Shown piece after piece: positions 9,186 to 54,904 of a stretch of DNA of 64,000 bases. The position numbers were made by a program, and so were the translations under genes. The DNA is from an uncultured bacterium (GTDB lineage: Bacteria; Edwardsbacteria; AC1; EtOH8): the NCBI GenBank assembly GCA_964518765.1, contig CAZFJC010000012.1, positions 11,667-75,666 on the forward strand, written 5' to 3'. Position 1 is the first letter of the stretch. Every line of letters starts with the position of its first letter. Under the pieces are notes generated by a model, which was not told where the DNA came from, searched no databases, and was given only the letters and a program-made list of their open reading frames with translations.

Positions 9186-9198
9186 TATTTTAATCCGA

Positions 9199-9232
9199 AA
9201 AGGGCATCGCTCTCCGCGATGCCCTTTTTATA
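9199..9232 (+). terminator. Rho-independent terminator after dnaE
   Basis: aaaagGGCATCGCtctccGCGATGCCCttttta: GC stem followed by a T-run. Confidence 0.6.
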
Positions 9233-40474: not shown

Positions 40475-42839
40475 GCATCAGATACATCAACCCCAGGCTC
40501 ATGGCCAGGAACAGCAGAGCGGTGGCCAGCTTGACCCCGGCCACCGAGGCCTGGGCCCAGGCGGCGATGCGCTTCGAGGACACGCCCCAAAAGGCGATGA
40601 CGAAGGTGATGATCATCGGCACTTCGAACATCAGATTGTAAAGAAGCAGATACCCGAAGGCCTGCATCCGGTAGGTGGAGATCTGGCTGACGAAGGCGAT
40701 GGTCGGCAGGTAAACCTGCCCGGTGCAGGCGAACTCCAACAGCGAGGTGATCAGCCCCACCCCGAAGGCCCCGCCGATCAGCCCGCCCGCCCCCATCCTT
40801 TCCCGGATGATCCGGTGGATCCTCTGCTTGGTCGCGGTGGAGAGCTGGAGATCCATGCCCGAAAGCTCGCCCCGGCGTGCTTTGAGGTAATCCCGAAGAT
40901 TGTAGAAGGCCAGCACCAGCCCGGCGATGATGGCCAGCCAGTAGAAAATCTTGCTTATCAGCGGCAGGGCCTTGAGCGTCATCAGAAACGACAGCCCGCC
41001 CACTCCGATCAGGAAGTAGACCAGGAAGTCGGCCAGGGTGTAGGTGGCCCCCACCGCCAGGATCTCCCAGCGCTGGCGGCCCACGAAGGCCAGATAGGAG
41101 ATGAAAAAAACCAGCACCGCCAGGGAGCAGGGATTGACGCCGTCCAAGAGGCCGGCCCCGATCACCCCCCACAGGCCGAATGATCGAAAACGCTCCAACA
41201 TGCTCTGCCTGGCCTGAGGAAGTTTATGCCCTGCCTCCAGCCAGGGGATTATGCCGCTGCCGTTCCTGTACTTTTCCAGCAGCCTGCCCAGTTGGCTGTC
41301 GTTCACCTGGTCGCCTGTCAGGTAATCCTGTCCCACAAAAGCCGAGGGGGCTATCATCCGTTGGGATTCCGGCACCTGATACAACAGGCCCAAGGCTTCC
41401 GCCAATAATTTTGATGAATCGGAGGATATCTCTATCTTTTTAATCGAGAGATTGGGATACCGCGCTTTGAGCGCCCGGAGCATATACTCAGCCCGATCGC
41501 ACTTGGGGCAGCGGGCGTCGGTGACCAGGGCCAGGTAAATGGAATCAACCTCTGAGTTCTCGGGTAACGGCCCGGCGGACGTGTCCCTGCCCGCCTGCGG
41601 AGGTTTTTGGATATCGGGCTTACTCTTGGCCGACGCCGCCTTGGCCACCTCGGCCCTCAAATGCTTCTCGATCTCCTCCACCCCGCCCAGTATCCGCCGG
41701 CCGATGACCGCGGCCGGGATCTGGTTGTTGCGGTCGCCCCAGCGTTCCTCGATGTCCAGCAGCCTGCGGTATTCCAGGGGATCGTCCACGCTTCGGTAGG
41801 TGATCTTTAGCCTTCCCGGGTAATCCCTGACCAGGGCGGTCAACAGGCCCTCCTTGAGCTTCTCGCAGTCCGGGCAGTCCGGGGCGAAGAAGACGTCCAC
41901 CGCGATATCACCGTAGCCCTGGACCCTGACCGCGGCGTGGCCTCTGGGGATGTAGGTCCCAACGATGGCGGTGATGTCCGGATCGTCCGGAAGGTCCGAG
42001 TTTATGCCCAGAAGCTTGGAGGATCTTAAGCGCCACCGTCCGTCCTGGAGCTCCATCCAAGCCTGGGTGAGCCAGGCAGCCTTGGAGCCGGCCTCTATGA
42101 TGGGAACGCCGTGGGACCGGTCCGCCTCCCTGATCTCGTTCTGGGTATGCCCCCCGATTATCAGGTCCAGCTCGGGGAATTCTGAGGCTATCTCCTGCTC
42201 CTTCTCGTATCCCAGATGGGAGAGCAGGATGATGGCATCTGCCTTGGGCCTGACCTCGGAGACAAGAGACCTCAGGACCGAATCGGGGTCCAGGATCTCC
42301 AGCTCCCGGGACACCTCGGCCGGATAGTACTTGAACACCTGCTGGCCCATAAGTCCGATGGCGGCCACCCTGATACCCCCGACTGCGAAAATGCGGTATC
42401 CGCCGACCAGCTCCTTGCCCCTGTGCCTGAGGTTGGCCGCCAGAAAATTCACCCTGAACTTAGAGGAGAGCTCCTGGAAATAGTCCACCCCCCTGGAGAG
42501 CTCCTGGTCGCCTAGGGCCACCGCCTGATAGCCCATGGCCTGGTAGGCGGCCAACACCAGGGAGTCGGTTTTCCTGTCCGAGTCCAGCCCCCAGATGTCC
42601 CCGGAGTCGAATAGCAGGTGGCCCGGGTGACCTCCTGTTATCTGTTTGATGAGCGAGTAACGCTTGGCCAGCCCGCCCTTGGGCTCGCTGGGGCACTTGC
42701 AGGGATAGAGATATCCGTTATTGGCGTTGGTCTGCAGGATCAAGAGCTGATGCGGTCCGGCCTGGGCCCGGGCGTTGGAAGCCAGCATCATGGCTGCCGT
42801 CATCAGCAGCCACCATATGTGATATTTTCTCCGGGTCAT
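40467..42839 (-). CDS. Tripartite fusion: calcineurin-like/5'-nucleotidase-like phosphoesterase domain (degenerate metal ligands) + thioredoxin-like domain(s) + C-terminal DsbD/CcdA-type transmembrane domain
   Basis: 790 aa. Signal peptide. N-terminal LILQTNANNGYLYPCKCP..DSGDIWG..IIGGHTQNE (5'-nucleotidase-like fold; canonical His/Asp replaced by Gln/Asn/Ala). Middle FFAPDCPDCEKLKE (thioredoxin CxxC). C-terminal multi-TM with GVNPCSLAVL.. and EFACTGQVYLPT (DsbD_2/CcdA-like). Confidence 0.65.
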   Translation of the reverse strand: MTRRKYHIWWLLMTAAMMLASNARAQAGPHQLLILQTNANNGYLYPCKCPSEPKGGLAKRYSLIKQITGGHPGHLLFDSGDIWGLDSDRKTDSLVLAAYQAMGYQAVALGDQELSRGVDYFQELSSKFRVNFLAANLRHRGKELVGGYRIFAVGGIRVAAIGLMGQQVFKYYPAEVSRELEILDPDSVLRSLVSEVRPKADAIILLSHLGYEKEQEIASEFPELDLIIGGHTQNEIREADRSHGVPIIEAGSKAAWLTQAWMELQDGRWRLRSSKLLGINSDLPDDPDITAIVGTYIPRGHAAVRVQGYGDIAVDVFFAPDCPDCEKLKEGLLTALVRDYPGRLKITYRSVDDPLEYRRLLDIEERWGDRNNQIPAAVIGRRILGGVEEIEKHLRAEVAKAASAKSKPDIQKPPQAGRDTSAGPLPENSEVDSIYLALVTDARCPKCDRAEYMLRALKARYPNLSIKKIEISSDSSKLLAEALGLLYQVPESQRMIAPSAFVGQDYLTGDQVNDSQLGRLLEKYRNGSGIIPWLEAGHKLPQARQSMLERFRSFGLWGVIGAGLLDGVNPCSLAVLVFFISYLAFVGRQRWEILAVGATYTLADFLVYFLIGVGGLSFLMTLKALPLISKIFYWLAIIAGLVLAFYNLRDYLKARRGELSGMDLQLSTATKQRIHRIIRERMGAGGLIGGAFGVGLITSLLEFACTGQVYLPTIAFVSQISTYRMQAFGYLLLYNLMFEVPMIITFVIAFWGVSSKRIAAWAQASVAGVKLATALLFLAMSLGLMYLMLG

Positions 42840-43729
42840 TTTTCCTGAACTATGGTCTCGGTGTCCCCCTCGCGGTCTATGTCCTCCAAGAGCCTGGCCA
42901 GATCACGGGCCATCCCGGCCAGCGCCCTCCAGCCTAGATAGCGGTCCAGGGCCCGCAGCATCTCGCCGGCCGAACGATAGCGTTCGGCGGCCCTGGTCCG
43001 CAACGACCGCCTGATGATGGCGGCCATCCCCCAGTCGTGGTAGGGTGAACGCCAGAAGGCCGAGGGGTATTTCCCGCGACAGATAGCAGCCGTCACCCCT
43101 TGTCCGTCGCCGCCGGTGAAGGGTTTCCTGCCGGTGACCATCTCGTAGAGCAGTATCCCCAGGGAGAACAGGTCCGAGGAGAAGGTGACGGTGCCCCCCG
43201 AGGCCTGCTCCGGCGACATATAGTAAGGGGTCCCCACCACCACCCCGGCCGTGGTCAGGTCCGATCCGGAAACCTCCCGGGCAACCCCGAAATCGGTGAG
43301 CTTGACCAGCCCCTCCCTCGAGATGAGGATGTTCCTGGGCTTGATGTCGCGGTGGATGACGCCGCGGCGGTGGGCGCACTCCAAGGCGGCGCACACCTGC
43401 CGGGCAATGCCGGCTGCCGTCCTCGGGGGCAGAGGCGCCTGGCGCTCGATGACGGTGGCCAGGTCCAGGCCGTCCACGAACTCCATCACCAGGTAGCCCG
43501 AGCCGCCGTGGCGGAAATAATCGAAGACCTCGATGATGTTGGGGTGCTGCAGGCCGGCGGCGATGGCCGCCTCCTTATCGGCCCTTTCAAGGTCGCCCTC
43601 TCCGGGCGAGGTCCTCTTGATCACCACCAGGCGGTCGAGCGAGCTCTGGACCGCGGTGAAGATCCGTCCCATGCCGCCCCGGCCCAGTTCGTCCACTATC
43701 CGGTAGCCGCGCGGAAAGTTCTTATCCAT
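42836..43729 (-). CDS. Serine/threonine protein kinase (kinase domain only)
   Basis: 297 aa. GRGGMGRIF..VVIK (gly-rich loop + Lys), HRDIKPRNIL (catalytic loop), DFG, SPE. Confidence 0.85.
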   Translation of the reverse strand: MDKNFPRGYRIVDELGRGGMGRIFTAVQSSLDRLVVIKRTSPGEGDLERADKEAAIAAGLQHPNIIEVFDYFRHGGSGYLVMEFVDGLDLATVIERQAPLPPRTAAGIARQVCAALECAHRRGVIHRDIKPRNILISREGLVKLTDFGVAREVSGSDLTTAGVVVGTPYYMSPEQASGGTVTFSSDLFSLGILLYEMVTGRKPFTGGDGQGVTAAICRGKYPSAFWRSPYHDWGMAAIIRRSLRTRAAERYRSAGEMLRALDRYLGWRALAGMARDLARLLEDIDREGDTETIVQEK

Positions 43730-44696
43730 CGGACGTAGCCACCCGGTTCCGCCCCTCGGCCTTGGCCCGGTAGACCGCGGCGTCGGCGCGACGCACCAGG
43801 TCCTGCCAGCCTTTATCCTTGGGACGCCGGCAGGCCACCCCCAGGCTGGCCGTCACCGAGAAACCGGTCAGCTCCCGGCTGCGCCCTTCCAACAGCTTCC
43901 TGATGGACTCGGCGGCAGAGGCGGCGTCCCCGGCCTCCATCCCGGGAAAGGCGGCTACGAACTCCTCGCCTCCATAGCGGGCCACCAGATCGTCGCGGCG
44001 GCAGACGGAGCGGATCAGCCTGGCGGCCGCCCTCAAGGCCCGGTCCCCGGCCTGGTGCCCGCGGCCGTCGTTGATCCGTTTGAAATGGTCCAGGTCGATG
44101 AACACCAGCGACAGCGGGCTTCGGTTACGGACCGACTGCCTCCATAAAAGATCCATCTCCTGTTCGAAGTGCCGGCGGTTGTGCAGGCCGGTGAGCCGGT
44201 CGCGCCGGGCCATATCCTTGAGTTTCCGGCGGCTGCGTTCGGCCGTCAGCCTGAGCCGCAGCAGGTCGCGGGCCTCCCCCCGGCCGCCCAGCTTGCGGCC
44301 TAGTTCCATAAATTGGAGTCGCAGCCCCACCGTCTCCTGCCCCAACCTTTCAGCGCAGGTGGCCTCGTCGGAAAGGTTCAGCCCCCGCCCGTCATCGTAG
44401 ATCAGAGTGGTGGAGCCCAGCCCCAACTCGTCGCCGTGCTTCAGGGGTCGGCTCTTTGTCCTGGCCCCGTTGACGAGGAGCCCGTTGGTGCTGTCCAGGT
44501 CCTCGACGTGCCATCTTCCCCCGGAGAGGTATATCCGGGCATGCTGGCGCGACACCAGCTTGTCGCCCAAGACCAGGTCGCAGCCAGAACTGCGTCCCAG
44601 CAGGCGGTCCCGCCCGTCGAGCTCCAGCCTCTTGATCAGGACCCCGTCGTCCACCAGGTTGAGGGAGGGGACGCCCTTTTCCGATGAGTCAGTCAA
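43722..44696 (-). CDS. FHA domain-containing diguanylate cyclase (FHA-GGDEF)
   Basis: 324 aa. N-terminal FHA (LGRSSGCDLVLGD..VSRQHARI..STNGLLVNG). C-terminal GGDEF (RYGGEEFV). Overlaps the kinase gene start by 8 nt. Confidence 0.85.
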   Translation of the reverse strand: MTDSSEKGVPSLNLVDDGVLIKRLELDGRDRLLGRSSGCDLVLGDKLVSRQHARIYLSGGRWHVEDLDSTNGLLVNGARTKSRPLKHGDELGLGSTTLIYDDGRGLNLSDEATCAERLGQETVGLRLQFMELGRKLGGRGEARDLLRLRLTAERSRRKLKDMARRDRLTGLHNRRHFEQEMDLLWRQSVRNRSPLSLVFIDLDHFKRINDGRGHQAGDRALRAAARLIRSVCRRDDLVARYGGEEFVAAFPGMEAGDAASAAESIRKLLEGRSRELTGFSVTASLGVACRRPKDKGWQDLVRRADAAVYRAKAEGRNRVATSDG

Positions 44697-45811: not shown

Positions 45812-46978
<1,167 letters not shown>

Positions 46979-47027: not shown

Positions 47028-47675
47028 TCACACCAGCTTGGCAGCCTCCCGTATCAACCCCACCGCCTGCCCGATGGAGAAGAGCCCGGTGTTGACCACC
47101 AGGTGGTAGTGGGCAGGATCGGCCCAGTCCTTGCCGTAGAAATCGCGGATGTAGGCCGCCCGGGCCTTGTCCTTCTTGTGGATCCGCTCCCTGGCCTCCT
47201 TCTCGCCCAGCTCCTGCCGCTCCATCACCCTTCTGACGCGGTGCTCCAGGGGCGCCACCAGCTTGATGTGCAAGCAGCCCGGCTTCCCGGCCAGCAGGTA
47301 CTGGCTCCCCCGGCCCACCAGCACCACCTCGCCCTTCTGGTAGAGGCTCTCGATGACCGCCTGGGTGAACCTGAGGTACTGCTCGGCGTCGAAGAAGTCG
47401 CCTCCGGCCGGCAATGGCCCGGCCATGGGCATCTCGAAGCCCATCACCGAGTACAGCGAGGGGTTGGCCAGAAACAGGTTCGACAGGTACTTGGAAAGCG
47501 GCGAGTACTCCTCCTGATCGAACTTCTCCACCCGCTCCGAGGCCACCTTGGCCTGCTGGGCCACCTTGATGATCACCGCCTTGTCGGCCAGCTCGTAGCC
47601 CAGGGCCCGGGCCAGCTCCCGGGCTATCTCCCGACCCCCGGCCCCGTGCTCCTTGGATATGGTTATTACCGCCAT
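47028..47675 (-). CDS. Cytidylate-kinase-like family P-loop protein
   Basis: MAVITISKEHGAGGREIARELARALGYELADKAVI.. (Walker A-like GAGG). Cytidylate_kin2-like layout. An alternative upstream start at 47699 is possible. Confidence 0.55.
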   Translation of the reverse strand: MAVITISKEHGAGGREIARELARALGYELADKAVIIKVAQQAKVASERVEKFDQEEYSPLSKYLSNLFLANPSLYSVMGFEMPMAGPLPAGGDFFDAEQYLRFTQAVIESLYQKGEVVLVGRGSQYLLAGKPGCLHIKLVAPLEHRVRRVMERQELGEKEARERIHKKDKARAAYIRDFYGKDWADPAHYHLVVNTGLFSIGQAVGLIREAAKLV

Positions 47676-48070
47676 ACTAAATTCCCTCTCAGATAACAAC
47701 TAACGGATAACGAACGTTAACCGCGGCCTTTCTCTATCGTACTGTAAAGCAGCCCTCCCATCTTCTCCACGTCTTGGAACAGCTCTTCGTGTGTCTCGGC
47801 GTCGAGATCCCCGGTGTCGCGCAGGAGATCGAGCCGACCGCCTCCGCCATATTGACGCCTATCGAGGTTCCCGATTTCAGAAGTCGCCTTGACCTCGCTT
47901 TTTCGACTTTTTCATCATTAACTTGTATTTTTTACTATCTTTACTGCAAAGGCATAATCCTTGGTAAATATAGAATGCTTTTATCCGCGCCCCCGATATT
48001 TCCCTTTACCTTTGCCGATGGTATACTATTGACTTGCTGTTAGCTGTTATCTGTTTGTTGTTAGTCGAAA

Positions 48071-49228
48071 TCACCGGCTGCGCAGCAGCGCCCCCACCCC
48101 CTGGTACCTGTCCAGCTCGGACTTGCCGGAATAGAACTCCACCTTGGCGCCGCTCCTGACGGCCAGCTCCACCAGCTCCTCCTTCATGTCGGCGGCCTCG
48201 GTCACCTCCTGGCTCTGGCAGAAGGGGCAGTTCCTGGCCTTTCCTCCGCTCCCCATCTGCATGCAGCTGGCGCACTTCCATCCGCGGCCGGCGTACTGGT
48301 CGGAAACCACCAGCAGCTCGGCCTGCCCGCTCTGAAGCGCGTTGAGGGTGGCCTCGGTGCCCACCACCGCCCGGCCGCCCTTGCCGGTCCCCCATACCAC
48401 CGCCTCCCGGGCCGCCCTCATCGAGCCCTCGTTCTCCGCCCTCTTGAATATGGCCAGCGTTTCGGAAAGCATCCGGTGGCGCGGGGTTCTTATGTCCATG
48501 GCGCCGCCCTCGATGGTCATGGCCTTCAGGGCCGGAGGCATCTGCCTCTTGAACTCGGCCTGGACGCCGTTGTCGGCCATCAGGATGACGGCATCCACCC
48601 GCCCGCCGAGAAAGAACCTGACGGCCTTCTGCAGGACGGCCTTGGCGTGTTTGGATACCTGTTCCATCAAATGCCGGCGGTAGCGTTCGTCCGAGTGTCC
48701 CAGGCGGCCCTTCTTGGTCTCGTAACCCTTGCTGGCCACGGCCTCGACATCGCTGACGATGTCCATCTCCTCCTCGACCTCGCCCAGGTTAACCCGTATC
48801 AGCCTGGCCCTCTTCTCGTCGCTCATGATGACGCCATAGGCGGAGAAGTCGTCGGCCATCTTCACCAGGGGATAGATATAGGGCAGACGGGAGACGATGA
48901 CGTGATTCTCGAAAGGCTGGGCCGTCTGGACCGCGGTGAAGACCTTCTTGCCCTGTGATATAAAGAGCGCCAGCCCCCGGGCGCGGCTGTTCACCTCCTC
49001 CTTCAGGTAGCGGTTGATCTCCCTGATGTCGGCCATCAGGTAGCCGTCAAGCGGGGAGCGCTGGGCGTACTGCTTCTCCAGCTCGGAGAACCTCTTCTTG
49101 AGGAAGGTCTGGTAGTGCCGCTGCCCCTTGGGGTCGGGCCGCAGGTCCAGGTAGAGGCTCATGATCAGGCCCTCGTCCAGCCTGATCTTGGCCAGTTGAC
49201 GGATAGTGCTGTTAATGTCGGTGCCCAT
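48071..49228 (-). CDS. eRF1/Pelota-superfamily protein (bacterial eRF1-like, 'baeRF' type) with a C-terminal zinc-ribbon insert; no GGQ motif
   Basis: 385 aa. C-terminal eRF1 domain-3-like block GTEATLNALQSGQAELLVVSD followed by WKCASCMQ..NCPFCQ (Zn ribbon). N-terminal LYLDLRPD.. and a central domain without GGQ. RBS GGGAGGA 9 nt upstream of the ATG. Confidence 0.55.
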   Translation of the reverse strand: MGTDINSTIRQLAKIRLDEGLIMSLYLDLRPDPKGQRHYQTFLKKRFSELEKQYAQRSPLDGYLMADIREINRYLKEEVNSRARGLALFISQGKKVFTAVQTAQPFENHVIVSRLPYIYPLVKMADDFSAYGVIMSDEKRARLIRVNLGEVEEEMDIVSDVEAVASKGYETKKGRLGHSDERYRRHLMEQVSKHAKAVLQKAVRFFLGGRVDAVILMADNGVQAEFKRQMPPALKAMTIEGGAMDIRTPRHRMLSETLAIFKRAENEGSMRAAREAVVWGTGKGGRAVVGTEATLNALQSGQAELLVVSDQYAGRGWKCASCMQMGSGGKARNCPFCQSQEVTEAADMKEELVELAVRSGAKVEFYSGKSELDRYQGVGALLRSR

Positions 49229-49319
49229 GTTTGCATTCCTCCCGTCAAATAGATTTATCTTTATTCCAGCGTTGCCAGGCCTGCGGCCATCAAAATGGCC
49301 GCAGGCCCGGCTCTTTTGC

Positions 49320-50243
49320 TCAGGCCTTGCCGGCGCAGCCGAACAGCCGCACCTTGCCCTTGACCACCTCCCGGACCGCGTCCCGGCCCGGGCCCAGGTA
49401 CTTGCGGGGGTCGAACTCCGACGGATTCTCGGCGAAGACCTTGCGGATGGCCCCGGTCAGGGCGATCCTCAGGTCGGTGTCCACGTTGATCTTGCAGACG
49501 GCCATCTTGGCCGCCCGGGCCAGGAACTCCTCGGGCACCCCCCGGGTCCCCGGCAGCTTGCCGCCGTACTTGTTGCAGACCTCCACCAGCTCGGGCGGGA
49601 CCGACGAGGCCCCGTGGAGCACGATGGGAAAGCCGGGCAGCAGCTTCTGTATCTTCTCCAATCTATCGAAATCAAGGGTCGGCTCGCCCTTGAACTTGTA
49701 GGCCCCGTGCGAAGTGCCGATGGAGACGGCCAGGGAGTCGCATCCGGTGAGCTCCACGAACTTCTTGGCCTGCTCGGGGTCGGTATAGACAGATTCCTTG
49801 GCCCCGGGCTCGTCCGAGGTCGAGGTCAGCTTGCCCAGCTCGGCCTCCACCGGCACCCCCTTGGCGTGGGCGTATTCCACTACCTCTTTGGTTATCTTGA
49901 CGTTGACCTCGAAGTCCTCGTGCGAGGCGTCGATCATCACCGATGAGAAACCGTCGTCCACGCAGGCCTTGCACAGCTCGAAGCTGTCCCCGTGGTCCAG
50001 GTGCAGAGCGATGGGCAGGTCGGGGTAGGTCTCCACCGCCGCCTTGACCAGGTGGGTGAGGTACTCCCGCCGCGCATATTTGCGGGCCCCGGATGACACC
50101 TGCAGGATGAGGGGCGCCCTCTCGGCCGCCCCGGCGTCGACGATGGCCTGCAGCAGCTCCATGTTGTTGACGTTGAAGGCGCCGATGGCGTATCCTCCTT
50201 GATAGGCCTTCTGGAACATCTCTTTGGTGCCGACCAGTGGCAT
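49320..50243 (-). CDS. fba: Fructose-bisphosphate aldolase, class II
   Basis: 307 aa. YAIGAFNVNNMEL..LHLDHG..IDASHE..HGASS. Confidence 0.9.
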   Translation of the reverse strand: MPLVGTKEMFQKAYQGGYAIGAFNVNNMELLQAIVDAGAAERAPLILQVSSGARKYARREYLTHLVKAAVETYPDLPIALHLDHGDSFELCKACVDDGFSSVMIDASHEDFEVNVKITKEVVEYAHAKGVPVEAELGKLTSTSDEPGAKESVYTDPEQAKKFVELTGCDSLAVSIGTSHGAYKFKGEPTLDFDRLEKIQKLLPGFPIVLHGASSVPPELVEVCNKYGGKLPGTRGVPEEFLARAAKMAVCKINVDTDLRIALTGAIRKVFAENPSEFDPRKYLGPGRDAVREVVKGKVRLFGCAGKA

Positions 50244-50312: not shown

Positions 50313-50717
50313 TCACTCCGCCCCCTCCTCCCCGCCCCCCGGCTTGAGCTCGAAGCGTTCCTCCAGGTCGTCCGCGGTGCCCGGCAACCGGTCCGGTCCG
50401 TCGCTCTTGATGGTGAAATGGTCGCTGGCCAGCTCCAGCCGGTAGGGCTGGTCGAAATAGTCCCGGTCCGACTGCTTGCCCTGGATTTTGACATGCTGCC
50501 GAAGCCAGCCGCTGAAGTCTGAGGCATCTGGCAGGTCGCCGCTGCAGCGGTAATTAGCTGCGATGGCCATGCCGGTGTTTCGCATCTCCGTCTGACTCAT
50601 GAAGGCATGATAGGTGTCCTTGACCGCCTGCATGGTCCGGCCCAGCCTGAACCCGCTCAGACGAAGGCCCAAGGCTACTATGGCCAGGAAGAGCACTTTG
50701 ACGAATATCTTAGGCAT
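50313..50717 (-). CDS. Small membrane-anchored hypothetical protein
   Basis: 134 aa from MPKIFVKVLFLAIVALGL (N-terminal hydrophobic anchor). The upstream 83 aa of the track ORF are rejected (Trp/Arg-rich, other frame of the neighbour). Confidence 0.4.
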   Translation of the reverse strand: MPKIFVKVLFLAIVALGLRLSGFRLGRTMQAVKDTYHAFMSQTEMRNTGMAIAANYRCSGDLPDASDFSGWLRQHVKIQGKQSDRDYFDQPYRLELASDHFTIKSDGPDRLPGTADDLEERFELKPGGGEEGAE

Positions 50718-52761
50718 GGGGCGGCGCCCCCAGCTGGGCCAGCCGTCCGCTGCCCAACCTCTCCAGCTTCTCCCCCAGCGACAGGTGCTGCGAGAAGAAC
50801 TGGTTAAAGTCATCTTTGGACAGGCAGAGCAGGCTGCCGTCAGTTCTGGCCACCACCGTGGCCGTTCTGGGGACATTGGCCAGCAGGGCAATCTCGCCGA
50901 AGGGATCTCCCTGGCGCAGGGTGGCCACCGGCGTCTTGTCGTCCGGCCCCAGCACCTCCAGCTCACCCTCCAGGGTCACATAAAAGAACTCCCCGACCTC
51001 GCCCCGCCTGATCACCGGCTGGTCCCTCTTCATGGGGATCCGTCGCACCCGCCGCAGCAGGCTAGCCATGGCCTCTGGCTCCAGTTCGGCGAACAGTGGC
51101 GAGGATTTGAGCACGTTGGCCCCGCGTATCAGCGACACCAGGTCGGCCCCGGACTGGCCTTCGGCCGCGGCCTGGAACGAGGCCCGGTCGATCACTATGG
51201 CCTCGCAGGGCTCCAGTGCCCTGACCGTGGCCGTCCTCGGCACCGATTCGATCAGGGCCACCTCGCCGAAGCAGTCTCCCGGCCCCAGGCGGGCCACTCT
51301 GGCTACCGCCCCGGTAACATCCTCCACCAGGACCTCGGCCCGGCCCTTGGTCAGCACGAAAAATTCTTCTCCTATATCGCCCTGCCGGATCAGCACCGCA
51401 CCCCGGGCGTGCCAGGTCCGCTTGGCCCGCTCCGCGATTTCCCTAACGACCTCGCCCGTCTGCCCGCTGAATATCGGGATGCCTTTCAGGACCTCGGCCA
51501 CCTGATCCGGCTCGGCCGCCTTCTGCGCCTTCCTCCTGGCCGTCCTGAACCTGGGGAACAGCGAGGCGACGGCCCCGGCCATGATGGCCAGCAGCCCGAT
51601 GGCTGCCGAGAAAAGGGACAGGCCCAGCGCGATGATGAAGAACCAGGATATGACGGCTAGGGCCGGGCTGGGGCGGCTGAATAACTGGCGCGAAAGCGGC
51701 AACAGGTTGCCCTCGGCCAATCGTTCCGCGAGGTAGAGGGCGGTAAAGAGCCAGGCCAGCAGCCAGACGCTGTACATGGCCATGGCCGGCTCGCCGCTGA
51801 AGCCCTTGGGGCTGGCCAAGCCCCTGAGGTATCTCCTGGTCAGGTAGGTCAGCGAGGAGCTGAGCGGCTGCCCTCCGGGTATCAGCGAAATGAAAAGCTC
51901 GTGGGCGCCTGTCCTGCCCACTGGGCACAAATCCATGAAGGCGGCCCCCAGCATTACCGCCACTATCAAGTTCATGGCTGCTGCAGCGCCATAACCTTTG
52001 AGCAGGACAATGGTCACCAGCCGAAGTATCGCGGCCATCAGGATCAGCCCCGCTAGGGCTTGGCCATGGGCCATCAATCTGATATTACGCGGGGCCCTCA
52101 CCAGGCACCTGGCGCCTGGATCGAAGTTGAGCAGTCCTGCTGTCAGCCGAAGGGCAAATCCGCTTGTCGGCATCCTGGCGGTCCTTAGGGTCGAGGCAAT
52201 TAAAAGCGACCGTAGGCTCAACGCCAGGGACGCTGCCAGGTATATGGTCGCCAAGCCCAGGGTGCTGCTGCCGCCTGGAAGCATCAGCTGCCAGATCCGG
52301 GGCAGGCCCAGAAAAGCCAGAATAATTATTCCGCAAATGGCCATTATTGCCGCGGGCCATAAACTGACGCTCTTTACGGACTTTGGTTCCGGATTCCGCC
52401 CACTGCCAAAACGAACGAGAATTATATCCTGCAGTTTATCAAGCCATCGGGGCCGACGGCACTGGCCCGCAGAAAGCAGCTCCCGGGCTATCTGATCATC
52501 CTCCAGCAACCCGGCTTTTGCCATCCGGAGGCAGATCGATTTGAGCTTCTGGAACGGAATATGGCCGTGGAACAGGTAGGCCTGGTAGGCGATGTCCTTC
52601 AGGGTCTGGCCAGTGAACAGCTTGGCCAGCCTGGCCTCCAGGTCATCCAGCACCAGGCTGTGCCGGCAGTCAGGGTAGCCAGCTACCCAGCTGCCATCGC
52701 CTCGGTCCCAGACCTGGCATCCCACTTTAAGTTTGACCTTGAAGTCCTCTAGTTCTGACAC
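50710..52761 (-). CDS. Polytopic membrane protein with two C-terminal cyclic-nucleotide-binding (cNMP/CAP_ED) domains
   Basis: About 680 aa. N-terminal soluble region, then ~8 predicted TM helices, then two cNMP-binding domains (..GDCFGEVALIESVPRTATVRA.. and ..GDPFGEIALLANVPRTATVVA..). Start set at the GTG at 52761 (AGGGA RBS); the track ATG at 52878 would overlap the upstream gene by 77 nt. Confidence 0.65.
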   Translation of the reverse strand: MSELEDFKVKLKVGCQVWDRGDGSWVAGYPDCRHSLVLDDLEARLAKLFTGQTLKDIAYQAYLFHGHIPFQKLKSICLRMAKAGLLEDDQIARELLSAGQCRRPRWLDKLQDIILVRFGSGRNPEPKSVKSVSLWPAAIMAICGIIILAFLGLPRIWQLMLPGGSSTLGLATIYLAASLALSLRSLLIASTLRTARMPTSGFALRLTAGLLNFDPGARCLVRAPRNIRLMAHGQALAGLILMAAILRLVTIVLLKGYGAAAAMNLIVAVMLGAAFMDLCPVGRTGAHELFISLIPGGQPLSSSLTYLTRRYLRGLASPKGFSGEPAMAMYSVWLLAWLFTALYLAERLAEGNLLPLSRQLFSRPSPALAVISWFFIIALGLSLFSAAIGLLAIMAGAVASLFPRFRTARRKAQKAAEPDQVAEVLKGIPIFSGQTGEVVREIAERAKRTWHARGAVLIRQGDIGEEFFVLTKGRAEVLVEDVTGAVARVARLGPGDCFGEVALIESVPRTATVRALEPCEAIVIDRASFQAAAEGQSGADLVSLIRGANVLKSSPLFAELEPEAMASLLRRVRRIPMKRDQPVIRRGEVGEFFYVTLEGELEVLGPDDKTPVATLRQGDPFGEIALLANVPRTATVVARTDGSLLCLSKDDFNQFFSQHLSLGEKLERLGSGRLAQLGAPPHA

Positions 52762-52801
52762 TGAGATTCCCTGCTGATTCGTCTTCTGTCTCTGTCCTTT
52801 C

Positions 52802-54904
52802 TCAGGAACCTGATTTTCCCTTTTGAGCCTCCTGCTCCTCCATCCGTTTGATGCACAGCTTGCAAAGGTGCTCCTCAATCGGGCCGTGCTCGGCGATGAA
52901 CTCTAAAAAGCCCTGCTTCTCCAACATCAGGAGCTGGCATTCGGTCTTGGCCACCACCGTGGCCGTCCGCGGCGAGTCGGTCAGCAGGGCGATCTCGCCG
53001 AAGGCGTCCCCCTTCCCTAAGGTGGCTATGACCGTCCGGTCGTCCGGACCCAGCACCTCCAGCTCGCCCTCGATCACCACGTAAAAGGCCCGCCCCTCCT
53101 CGCCGCGGCGGATGACCACCCAGCCCATGTCCACCGACATATGCTGGCCCACCTCTATGAACCTGGCCATTTCCTCCAGGGAAAGGCTGTCCAGGAATGA
53201 CGGATCCTTTAACAGATTGGTGCCGGCTAGGGTCCGGGCCAGGCTCTGGCCGTACTCCAGCTCCAGCACCTTGGTGCGGCGGTCGCAGACCTCGGAGGGC
53301 CCGTAGTATTGTATCGGCCCGGGATAGAGGTATTCGTTGTTCAGGGCCCAGCGCTCCCGGTTCTTGGCGAACTCCAGGAAGGGGCGGCTTTCAAGGTCGA
53401 CCAGGGCCTTGCGGATGACCGGAACCTCCCTGCCCTTTCTCCTCTCCAGCGCCATCATCGAAGCTAGGGGCACCCCTCCCGGAGCCCACTGATCGGCCGG
53501 CCGGGCCAGGTTGCGCACCACCGCCATATAGCCGGTGCGGCCCGAGGCCAGCAGGGCGGCGGCGGTGTAGCCCAGGCTGTAGGCATAGTCGGCGTCGAAG
53601 TTGGAGGGGGGAGCGCAGCGCCCCTCATAGCCGAAGAAATGGTACTGGGCCGAGAACTTCCCTTTATACATTCCCTTCCGGGCCAGTTCGCGCAGACGAT
53701 CGCCCACCATGTCCCCCAGCAGTTTCTCGGTCTCTATTTTGGAGACCTGGACGTTGCCGTGCGGGTCCCTGTCCTCCAGCAGTTGGCTGCGGATGCTCTG
53801 GGGCAGGACGGAGAAGGTCTGGGCCGATTCAGCCGAAAGCTTTCTCGCTAAAAACTGCTGCCTGTCCTCGTCGGTGGGAAGCGCCTGGTACTGGTCCCGA
53901 TCCCGGGCCAGGATGTCGTTGAGCTCGGCGATCAGCTTCTTGATCTCGGGGATGAACTCTACCAAGCCTTCGGGGATGACCGCTACCCCGAAGTCCATTC
54001 CCAGCTCCGAACGGTTGCGCACCACGCCGGCCAGGTAGTCGCAGAGCTCGACCAACCTGATGCTCCGGGCGGCCACCTCCTCGGAGATGATGGCGATGTT
54101 GGGCCGGCATTGCAGGGCGCACTCCAGGGCGATATGGGAGGCCGAACGCCCCATCACCCGGATGAAGTGCCAGTACTTGCGGGCCGAGTCAGCATCGCGT
54201 TCGATGTTTCCCACAAGCTCCGAGTAGATCTTGGTGGCGGTGTCAAACCCGAAGGAGCTCTCCATCCGTTCGTTCTTTAGGTCTCCGTCAATGGTCTTAG
54301 GCACCCCGACCACTTTGACGGGGATCCCTTCCCGAAGGAAGAACTCAGCCAGCAGACAGGCATTGGTGTTGGAATCGTCGCCGCCGATAACCACCAAAGA
54401 ATCAACGCCCAAGCTCTGGCAGGTTTCGGCCACCCGGCGAAACTGTTCTTCTTCTTCCAGCTTGGTGCGGCCCGATTGGATCATGTCGAAGCCGCCAGTG
54501 TTTCGGTAGCGGTCGACCGTCTCCCGGTCAAGCAGCCGGTGCCGGTTCTCCAGGATGCCGCCGGGGCCGCCCAAAAAGCCGAACAGCTTTGAGCCGGGGT
54601 CGGACGCCTGCAAGGCGTCGAACAGGCCGGCGATGACGTTGTGTCCACCCGGGGCCTGGCCCCCGGAAAGGACTACCCCGCAGACCAGGGGCTTGCTCAG
54701 CCTCCTCCCGGGTTCGGCCCCGAAGCTAACCAGGGGCAGGGAGCCGGTCCTGGGGAACTGCTTAGCCAAAGCGGCTCCGTCGCCGGAGGTCTCAGGCACC
54801 AGGCCCTCCATGGCCCGGACCGACATCCCGTGCTCGGAAAAGAGCGGAGGAAGTTTCGGTTTGTACCCCAGCCTGTTCTTCTGCAGAGCGGAGATATTCT
54901 CCAT
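52802..54904 (-). CDS. pfp: Pyrophosphate-dependent phosphofructokinase (long type) fused to a C-terminal cyclic-nucleotide-binding domain
   Basis: 700 aa. PFK core with GGDDS and PKTIDGD (PPi-type substitutions vs ATP-PFK GGDGS/PGTIDND), MGR motif. The C-terminal ~120 aa form a cNMP-binding domain (..GKGDAFGEIALLTDSPRTATVVAKT..). Confidence 0.8.
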   Translation of the reverse strand: MENISALQKNRLGYKPKLPPLFSEHGMSVRAMEGLVPETSGDGAALAKQFPRTGSLPLVSFGAEPGRRLSKPLVCGVVLSGGQAPGGHNVIAGLFDALQASDPGSKLFGFLGGPGGILENRHRLLDRETVDRYRNTGGFDMIQSGRTKLEEEEQFRRVAETCQSLGVDSLVVIGGDDSNTNACLLAEFFLREGIPVKVVGVPKTIDGDLKNERMESSFGFDTATKIYSELVGNIERDADSARKYWHFIRVMGRSASHIALECALQCRPNIAIISEEVAARSIRLVELCDYLAGVVRNRSELGMDFGVAVIPEGLVEFIPEIKKLIAELNDILARDRDQYQALPTDEDRQQFLARKLSAESAQTFSVLPQSIRSQLLEDRDPHGNVQVSKIETEKLLGDMVGDRLRELARKGMYKGKFSAQYHFFGYEGRCAPPSNFDADYAYSLGYTAAALLASGRTGYMAVVRNLARPADQWAPGGVPLASMMALERRKGREVPVIRKALVDLESRPFLEFAKNRERWALNNEYLYPGPIQYYGPSEVCDRRTKVLELEYGQSLARTLAGTNLLKDPSFLDSLSLEEMARFIEVGQHMSVDMGWVVIRRGEEGRAFYVVIEGELEVLGPDDRTVIATLGKGDAFGEIALLTDSPRTATVVAKTECQLLMLEKQGFLEFIAEHGPIEEHLCKLCIKRMEEQEAQKGKSGS

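Follow-up and report, generated by a model that had tools for sequence, protein, structure and literature searches.

A Balon-like protein encoded in a glycolytic gene cluster of an uncultured bacterium: a probable ribosome hibernation factor

What might an eRF1-like protein without the GGQ motif do in a bacterium, and what does the position of its gene among the genes of glycolysis tell about it? The question is raised by the minus strand of a 64,000-nt stretch of DNA from an uncultured bacterium of the Edwardsbacteria (contig CAZFJC010000012.1 of assembly GCA_964518765.1, positions 11,667 to 75,666; this whole stretch is called the window in the following), in which a preliminary description made from the letters alone had pointed out a gene for an eRF1-like product of 385 amino acids (aa). 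Analyzing this locus by profile searches, structure prediction and comparison of gene neighbourhoods, we found that the protein belongs to family 10 of the bacterial eRF1-like (baeRF) proteins, and that its modelled fold comes closest to that of the Balon-type factors on the ribosome. We consider it probable that it is a Balon-type ribosome hibernation factor, i.e. a non-catalytic A-site blocker which stores ribosomes and which descends from aRF1/eRF1. The parts of the gene referred to below are as follows:

48071..49228, minus strand: Balon-like (baeRF family 10) gene; ATG start, 385 aa, stop codon at 48071-48073; supported by Pfam, profile searches, Foldseek and the ratio of nonsynonymous to synonymous substitutions (dN/dS)
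49237..49243, minus strand: Shine-Dalgarno-like GGGAGGA, 8 nt 5' of the ATG, read from the sequence
48839..49228, minus strand: N-terminal domain, about aa 1-130; no eRF1_1 match, collinear with the N domains of MSMEG_1130, Rv2629 and 8rd8_B
48443..48838, minus strand: middle domain, about aa 131-262, RNase-H-like, equivalent of eRF1 domain 2; Pfam match at aa 116-260 and alignment to eRF1 M domains
48671..48742, minus strand: equivalent of the GGQ loop, aa 163-186, KG-YETKKGRL-GHSDERYRRH, placed by alignments; aa 163-177 modelled at low confidence (pLDDT, the predicted local distance difference test, <50)
48074..48442, minus strand: C-terminal domain, about aa 263-385, equivalent of eRF1 domain 3 and of the corresponding Pelota domain; eRF1_3 match at aa 284-383 and match to 3ir9_A (aRF1 C domain)
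48218..48274, minus strand: zinc ribbon C319-x2-C322 ... C334-P-x-C337, i.e. CASC...(11)...CPFC, aa 319-337

Family and fold of the eRF1-like protein

The open reading frame (ORF) was found as described, and its start methionine is kept by all close homologs. The strong ribosome-binding site with which the gene had been credited is present as well; among the relatives, a purine-rich GAGG/AAGG core is retained at this site. Compared with a 90%-identical homolog, the gene shows a dN/dS of ~0.15, which is close to that of the adjacent aldolase gene fba (0.11; 0.17 for the kinase-like gene on its other side). Thus, purifying selection acts on the Balon-like gene.

The assignment to the bacterial eRF1-like proteins, already proposed in the preliminary description, rests on the Pfam model PF18854 (baeRF_family10), which the protein matches with 79.5 bits (gathering threshold 27.1; E=3.9e-22) at aa 116-260, where the match runs over positions 1-141 of the 143 in the profile; the same family is the precomputed assignment of close homologs. 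In Pfam scans of sequences that were reconstructed from profile alignments, the mycobacterial protein MSMEG_1130 falls into baeRF_family10 too (124.6 bits), and Rv2629 into baeRF family 2. An eRF1_3 match at aa 284-383 stays below the Pfam threshold (E=2.5e-4), and eRF1_1 has no match in the 385 aa even at E<=1. The eRF1 domain-3-like block TLNALQSGQAELLVVSD that had been reported for the C-terminal part is indeed present in the product. Among the NCBIfam models, the best matches are full-length ones to the MSMEG_1130-family and Rv2629-family ribosome hibernation factors (RHFs); the aRF1_eRF1 model TIGR03676 reaches 40 bits (cutoff 234.7), and no pelota model is found among the matches listed at E<=1. 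A search of the PDB sequences with the single sequence retrieved Balon of Mycolicibacterium smegmatis (MSMEG_1130, 8v9j_z; E=7e-6). With a profile of 14 homologs, end-to-end alignments were obtained with MSMEG_1130 (E=1.6e-28) and Rv2629 (E=3e-14), besides matches to eRF1 M domains at ~1e-11 and a weak one to Balon of Psychrobacter (8rd8_B, E=4.7e-4). The family is large: an exhaustive search of representatives yielded 8032 cluster representatives at E<=1e-3, of which 1455 reach E<=1e-30.

Balon proteins set idle ribosomes aside under stress, and their family is better known than the preliminary description assumed when it called such proteins poorly characterised. Burroughs and Aravind (2019) delimited the baeRF-1 clade and pointed to its linkage with HPF, from which a hibernation-linked role was predicted early on (PMC6514570). 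Balon homologs occur in ~20% of representative bacteria; Balon, MSMEG_1130 and Rv2629 bind, together with EF-Tu(GDP), to the A site of ribosomes, be they vacant or translating, independently of mRNA (Helena-Bueno et al. 2024, PMC10901736). Counting native Balon of Synechocystis, which was found on hibernating ribosomes (2026 preprint, 10.64898/2026.07.03.736309), four such proteins have been seen in the A site by cryo-EM, and three RHF families of the Balon kind are now named in NCBIfam. Compared to aeRF1, these factors lack both NIKS and GGQ; they have an 'HP motif' in the N domain, by which the decoding centre is bound, a lasso loop and a bL27 trap in the middle domain, and a beta-hairpin inserted into the C domain, which touches EF-Tu (PMC10901736).

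The AlphaFold2 model, calculated on the homolog alignment, has a mean pLDDT of 88 and a predicted template-modelling (TM) score of 0.83, with pLDDT values below 50 only at residues 163-177. In a Foldseek comparison of this model with the PDB the ribosome-bound MSMEG_1130 ranks first (8v9j_z, E=2.1e-23, TM 0.73/0.77; 8v9l_z, E=1e-22), followed by Psychrobacter Balon (8rdw_B, E=2e-18, TM 0.61-0.67), aRF1 (4af1, E=4e-18, TM ~0.5), eRF1 (E ~1e-16, TM 0.5 or lower) and Rv2629 (E=1e-14, TM 0.65). Pelota/Dom34 structures are found far behind Balon and eRF1 (E 1e-9 to 1e-6, TM 0.2-0.4). The modelled fold and inter-domain arrangement are those of Balon on the ribosome: three aeRF1-like domains in 385 aa, within the range of 360-420 aa of Balon-type proteins. 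The Pelota/Dom34-like state suggested earlier for this protein fits as far as the missing catalytic motif is concerned, but not with respect to the fold, for which Balon and then aRF1/eRF1 are closest.

NIKS was not found in a motif search of the window protein and its close homologs. An N-domain loop at aa 28-38, DLRPDPKGQRH, is strongly conserved in the clade (D32, K34, G35, Q36 and R37 are invariant in 10 homologs) and aligns at equal length with THREHPANDQD, the REHPAND loop of Psychrobacter Balon (8rd8_B). Judging from this alignment, we infer that the loop takes the place of the 'HP motif', which is described in the text of the paper without residue numbers.

The loop at the GGQ position and the zinc ribbon

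The absence of GGQ that had been noted for this protein holds for its whole length. At the catalytic position, where KKHGRGGQSALRFARLR of eRF1 is aligned with KKGRLGHSDERYRRH of the window protein, GRGGQS stands opposite G174-R-L-G-H178-S, i.e. LGH is found instead of GGQ. In nine full-length close homologs GGQ is either absent or occurs at scattered, non-catalytic positions (208, 299, 328 and 341). The consensus of the family at this loop, taken from an alignment of 164 sequences, reads G-G-W-S-Q-x-R-[YF]-Q-R-H, with W in 122 and Q in 105 of them. The clade of the window protein departs from it in two ways: eight residues (YETKKGRL) are inserted between the two glycines, and the residues behind them have changed, the GGQ glutamine being replaced by His or Trp and the SQ glutamine of the relatives by an invariant Asp. 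Both candidate catalytic glutamines are therefore gone in the clade, within which the altered loop, LG[HW]SDE[RK][YH], is strongly conserved. Because neither GGQ nor the glutamine of GGWSQ is left, a non-catalytic A-site blocker is the best reading.

Among the wider relatives we observed a subgroup (P0029, P0028, P0031, P0037, P0012 and P0020) with the loop HKKGG[W/M/C/Q]SQMRFQRL, which is nearly identical to that of eRF1. Its members score 95-122 bits on aRF1_eRF1 (cutoff 234.7), more than on the hibernation-factor models, and P0029 (L138, 6001-7101) combines a literal GGQ with a zinc ribbon. They may represent transitional forms between aRF1 and Balon, perhaps of archaeal origin and perhaps with catalytic activity.

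The insertion found at the site of the EF-Tu-contacting beta-hairpin of Balon is, in the window protein, a ribbon with four cysteines. Its strands (316-319, 325-327 and 342-345) are modelled at high pLDDT. A CxxC...CxxC pair is present at the same site of the C domain in 125 of 163 homologs, and the second knuckle, NCPFC (NCPxC), aligns with NCPKC in the C domain of Methanosarcina mazei aRF1; in the alignment to MSMEG_1130 the site is occupied by a cysteine-free segment. For many baeRF families a two-strand insert at the zinc-ribbon site of aeRF1 has been described, 'conceivably a degenerate ZnR' (PMC6514570). From its frequency among the homologs and the alignment of its knuckle with aRF1, the ribbon of the window protein is the ancestral one of aRF1, retained and widespread, and no novelty of this gene. 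The preliminary description was right about a zinc ribbon within the equivalent of domain 3, but what it called an insert is not a new one.

The glycolytic neighbourhood

All features that surround the gene in the cluster lie on the minus strand as well:

45812..46876, minus strand: type I GAPDH, downstream, same orientation; TIGR01534 430.5 bits (cutoff 367)
47028..47675, minus strand: Cytidylate_kin2 kinase-like gene, 215 aa; PF13189, E=8e-50; syntenic in all close relatives
47694..48063, minus strand: spacer with a decayed 23S_rRNA_IVP (PF05635) gene, recognised by alignment to intact copies and by inverted repeats
49274..49311, minus strand: hairpin; 13-bp stem without mismatch around a 4-nt loop at 49278-49307, extending to 17 bp
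49320..50243, minus strand: class II fructose-bisphosphate aldolase (FBA, gene fba), directly upstream; Pfam E=6e-106, TIGR01859 369.6 bits (cutoff 343)
52802..54904, minus strand: pyrophosphate (PPi)-dependent phosphofructokinase (PFK) with a C-terminal cyclic-nucleotide (cNMP)-binding domain, head of the cluster; TIGR02477 758 bits, PF00027

Both the position of the gene behind fba, in one orientation with glycolytic genes, and the presence of a cytidylate-kinase-like protein downstream were thereby confirmed. The kinase-like protein has GAGGRE where the canonical Walker A motif is GxGK[ST], so that it may or may not be active as a kinase.

We found seven distinct relatives with 62-90% identity, all from metagenomes or metagenome-assembled genomes (MAGs) and one of them labelled as candidate phylum UBP2; an alignment search of genomes for the close clade yielded two loci, from an uncultured 'binchicken' MAG and from UBP2_UBA4780. 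In all seven the gene order is the same: a ComF-like gene, the PPi-PFK-cNMP gene, variable genes, FBA, the Balon-like gene, a spacer, Cytidylate_kin2 and GAPDH. Outside this group the picture is different. By means of a degenerate DNA pattern for GGWSQxR[YF]QRH we collected 120 metagenome loci with homologs of the GGWSQ type, none of which has a relative of the kinase-like, FBA or GAPDH gene nearby. A common partner was not found across the wider family either: the same-strand neighbours are heterogeneous (among 70 homolog-adjacent ORFs, Sua5 and Ku occur three times each, aconitase and DsbA twice each), with the reservation that ORF calling at these loci was crude (greedy longest ORFs), so that weak associations may escape. 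Of three more distant homologs, one lies beside TrkA_C, one (P0013) beside Usp/CBS/Zn_ribbon_8, and one on a contig too short for annotated neighbours; the kinase-like gene is absent at the loci L009-L011. The linkage to the kinase-like gene, fba and gap is thus conserved only in the close, UBP2-like uncultured lineage, and the co-occurrence across homologs that had been proposed as a check of the kinase link does not reach beyond it. Since the synteny spans the whole PFK-FBA-GAPDH block and vanishes outside the lineage, the link to the kinase-like gene reflects shared descent of the entire glycolytic block and no two-gene system.

A few further observations concern the proteins and genes of this block. 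In the comparison of the loci L001-L008 with the window, the Balon-like protein diverges much faster than its neighbours: it shows 63-69% identity to the more distant relatives, compared to 91-94% for FBA, 91-94% for GAPDH, 84-86% for the kinase-like protein and 83% for PFK. The PFK-cNMP fusion is kept in all relatives, which suggests a direct control of glycolysis by cyclic nucleotides; behind it, a 722-aa ORF with two cNMP-binding domains is located at 50710-52878 (minus strand). Between GAPDH and the next conserved gene lies a DUF559 gene (endonuclease-like, PF04480; 45357-45752, minus strand), which is absent from this place in the relatives examined. Downstream of the glycolytic block, an FHA-GGDEF diguanylate cyclase stands beside a Ser/Thr protein kinase (42836-44696, minus strand); the pair is kept there in L001 and L002 and adds to the signalling-rich context.

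The gap between the Balon-like and the kinase-like gene, given before as 370 bp, measures 371 nt to the TTG start of the kinase-like ORF, or 395 nt if counted to the ATG at 47675, with which the 215-aa product of all relatives begins. The inverted repeats said to bound it were found (47694-47711 and 48046-48063, 18 nt, 89% complementary). What they enclose is not a plain intergenic region but a decayed cassette: the same spacer contains intact 23S_rRNA_IVP genes of 83-86 aa in L001, L133 and L134, and the spacer of the window aligns to such an intact one with a deletion of ~73 bp and broken reading frames. No copy was called in the spacers of L004, L135 and L136. The gene for this four-helix-bundle protein has the look of a small cassette that comes and goes at this position.

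On the other side, the Balon-like gene begins 91 nt downstream of fba, with the hairpin in between. The hairpin is real, with its perfect 13-bp stem and tttg loop, although its coordinates were given as 49279-49308 and are shifted by one. No equal stem appeared in 100 shuffles of the window, and for the intergenic RNA of 102 nt a folding energy of -45.9 kcal/mol was calculated (z = -5.4). As had been stated, it has no U-run, which holds for the coding (minus) strand; CTCTTTT follows the stem on the plus strand. We considered the hairpin as an intrinsic terminator of fba and rejected this, as an A/T run on the coding strand is missing, unlike in other hairpins of the window, e.g. at 9198-9228 (AAAAGGGCATCGC...GCGATGCCCTTTT), which have such runs on both sides. 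More likely it serves as a stabiliser or a processing site, or forms the base of a palindromic element. In the 90% and 71% identical relatives, L133 (5857-6000) and L135 (5782-6000), the arms are kept, including a compensatory C:G to T:A change, and enclose 55-150 nt of further palindromic sequence; in more distant relatives the element is absent. Neither the hairpin nor the longer inserts have a match in Rfam, and together they may represent a nested palindromic element, one like a miniature inverted-repeat transposable element, or an unclassified structured RNA. A scan of the minus strand for sigma-70-like promoters, the one type searched, found none between fba and the Balon-like gene; co-transcription with fba by read-through past the hairpin is therefore the simplest inference.

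Proposed function and its alternatives

On the analogy of the solved factors, the protein would enter the A site of 70S ribosomes that are vacant or paused. There, the N domain, devoid of NIKS, would contact the decoding centre without reading mRNA, with the loop DPKGQRH at the place of REHPAND, and the middle domain would set an extended, basic and flexible loop, KGYETKKGRLGHSDERYRRH, next to the peptidyl-transferase centre. Because this loop has neither the GGQ nor the GGWSQ glutamine, peptidyl-tRNA would presumably not be hydrolysed and the site merely be blocked. The C domain with its zinc ribbon would be turned to the GTPase-associated region and to EF-Tu, possibly touching the latter through the ribbon. 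The outcome would be a reversible shut-down of translation with protection of the ribosomes, and read-through from fba past the hairpin, which lacks a U-tract, would link the factor's synthesis to the glycolytic cluster.

Several findings weigh against a hibernation factor of the Balon type. The cutoffs of all three named NCBIfam models are missed by far: NF052288 (MSMEG_1130 family) gives 69.4 bits (cutoff 480) NF052289 (Rv2629 family) 59.1 bits (cutoff 320) and NF052287 (AOC03_06830 family, Psychrobacter Balon) 26.4 bits (cutoff 330), all three over the full length. The window protein is thus outside these equivalogs and forms a separate subfamily, with only ~20% identity to MSMEG_1130 and the solved proteins. 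The bL27 trap and the lasso loop of Psychrobacter Balon cannot be identified in it by sequence; a literal His-Pro is absent, as it is in MSMEG_1130 (DPTQ) and Rv2629 (SHDT). Its neighbours are glycolytic, whereas a context of stress, RaiA, Hsp20 or Usp genes has been reported for Balon genes (PMC10901736), this being a tendency and no strict criterion, and no RaiA/HPF gene turned up among the scanned proteins of the window, where no systematic search for one was made. Finally, GGWSQ in the nearest large group of relatives resembles the GGxSQ proposed to be catalytic in VLRF-1 (PMC6514570), so that the ancestral activity of the branch is uncertain.

With these points in mind, other functions have to be weighed. 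A non-catalytic rescue factor like Pelota/Dom34, which would recognise stalled ribosomes and, with a GTPase or ATPase as its partner, promote the splitting of their subunits or their recycling rather than store them, would share the superfamily and, as in Dom34, the lack of a catalytic glutamine; such a role is one of the options proposed for baeRF-1 by Burroughs and Aravind (PMC6514570), and a possible parallel between Balon and RRF/Pelota is raised in the Synechocystis preprint (10.64898/2026.07.03.736309). We regard it as unlikely, given that the Foldseek matches to Pelota (E ~1e-9, TM 0.2-0.4) are far below those to Balon and eRF1, that a Pelota-type N domain was not matched, and that all solved bacterial relatives are hibernation factors. 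Nor is a conserved ABCE1, Hbs1 or other NTPase partner adjacent; the sole P-loop-like neighbour is the lineage-specific Cytidylate_kin2 gene beyond the mobile-looking cassette. The GGWSQ motif leads to another alternative, an active enzyme of the VLRF-1/Vms1 type that would hydrolyse peptidyl-tRNA or act on tRNA in rescue, using an unconventional catalytic loop. The acVLRF1 models are matched below threshold (Pfam 26.6 bits, threshold 27.1; NCBIfam 19.8 bits, cutoff 125), and baeRF family 10 was singled out as one that retains a conserved glutamine and hence is possibly catalytic (PMC6514570); GGWSQ is found in most relatives and GGQ in P0029, and the strong conservation of the loop in the clade would also be in keeping with an enzyme. 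Yet the clade has lost both candidate glutamines, its loop reading LGHSD, the 8-residue insertion alters a loop length that active families hold narrowly fixed (PMC6514570), and MSMEG_1130, which shares the Pfam family, does not act as a catalyst on the ribosome (PMC10901736), which leaves the hydrolase quite unlikely.

That the gene could belong to a module for conflict or defence, or form a two-gene system together with its kinase-like neighbour, was an idea with some basis: baeRF-1 has been discussed in the context of conflicts (PMC6514570), and seven distinct relatives keep the synteny with Cytidylate_kin2. A search of PADLOC-DB 2.0 gave no match at E<=0.01 for either the Balon-like or the kinase-like protein, so that the link to conflict systems drawn in the preliminary description finds no support here. 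The flanks consist of housekeeping genes of glycolysis; the two genes are parted by ~400 nt with the independently gained and lost IVP cassette; the kinase-like gene is missing from the 120 other homolog loci and from L009-L011; and the extent of the synteny, over the whole block, speaks for shared descent. We hold this possibility to be very improbable.

Returning to the hibernation factor as the favoured function, we propose to annotate the gene as a putative Balon-like ribosome hibernation factor, not as a release factor; the name is 'Balon-like', without a named subfamily, because the Pfam family is passed while all three NCBIfam cutoffs are failed. The family as such is known and present in a fifth of bacteria; mildly interesting are the clade-specific loop insertion and the conserved position in a glycolytic cluster, all else being as expected of such a family. 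The recognition of Balon-type factors dates only from 2024, and the homolog of the window adds a subfamily from a candidate phylum that has retained the zinc ribbon. It can be placed in a graded series, from aRF1 (GGQ and zinc ribbon) via the relatives (GG[Q/W/M]SQ and zinc ribbon) and the window clade (expanded loop, no glutamine, zinc ribbon) to mycobacterial Balon (neither motif nor ribbon cysteines), which could guide work on the way from release factor to hibernation factor and on the ribbon as an ancestral contact to EF-Tu or the stalk. The conserved glycolytic placement is a small, testable hint that hibernation is coupled to carbon metabolism in this lineage. More speculatively, and we think this rather doubtful as a whole, the lineage might have built a Balon-type factor into its glycolytic cluster (cNMP-PPi-PFK, FBA, factor, GAPDH), read through from fba past the U-tract-less hairpin, so that hibernation would be set by carbon flux or cyclic-nucleotide signalling and not by a classical stress regulon, and the basic 8-residue insertion together with the zinc ribbon would mean that the peptidyl-transferase centre and also EF-Tu are engaged in a distinct manner, which lies between those of aRF1 and mycobacterial Balon.

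Compared with the known systems, the window protein resembles MSMEG_1130 of Mycolicibacterium smegmatis (8v9j/8v9l; NF052288) most, sharing with it the Pfam family, a collinear full length, the best structural match and the lack of both NIKS and GGQ. It differs from MSMEG_1130 in keeping the four ribbon cysteines where the latter is cysteine-free, and in its loop on the side of the peptidyl-transferase centre, the sequences of which are unrelated; MSMEG_1130 is reportedly induced by hypoxia (PMC10901736), whereas the window gene is found in a glycolytic cluster. With Balon of Psychrobacter urativorans (8rd8/8rdv/8rdw) it has in common the three-domain aeRF1-like build and an N-domain loop of equal length, but the identity is only 14%, a literal His-Pro is lacking and no RaiA gene is adjacent. 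The nearest relatives outside the clade, at 25-35% identity, are the uncharacterised zinc-ribbon proteins of baeRF family 10 with GGWSQ, to which most of the 150 nearest representatives belong; length, zinc ribbon and the downstream R[YF]QRH agree, in contrast to the short loop (G-G-W-S-Q, compared with G-(YETKKGRL)-G-[HW]-S-D in the clade) and the heterogeneous gene contexts, which are devoid of glycolysis and kinase-like genes. In aRF1/eRF1 (TIGR03676; 4af1, 3ir9, 1dt9), finally, the M and C domains are homologous (E ~1e-11), and both the ribbon knuckle NCPxC and a basic helix after the loop (RYRRH in the window protein, RFARLR in aRF1/eRF1) recur, but GGQ and NIKS are present there, where the window protein has LGH, the 8-residue insertion and no eRF1_1 match. 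In the model, its overall domain arrangement is closer to Balon than to aRF1/eRF1.

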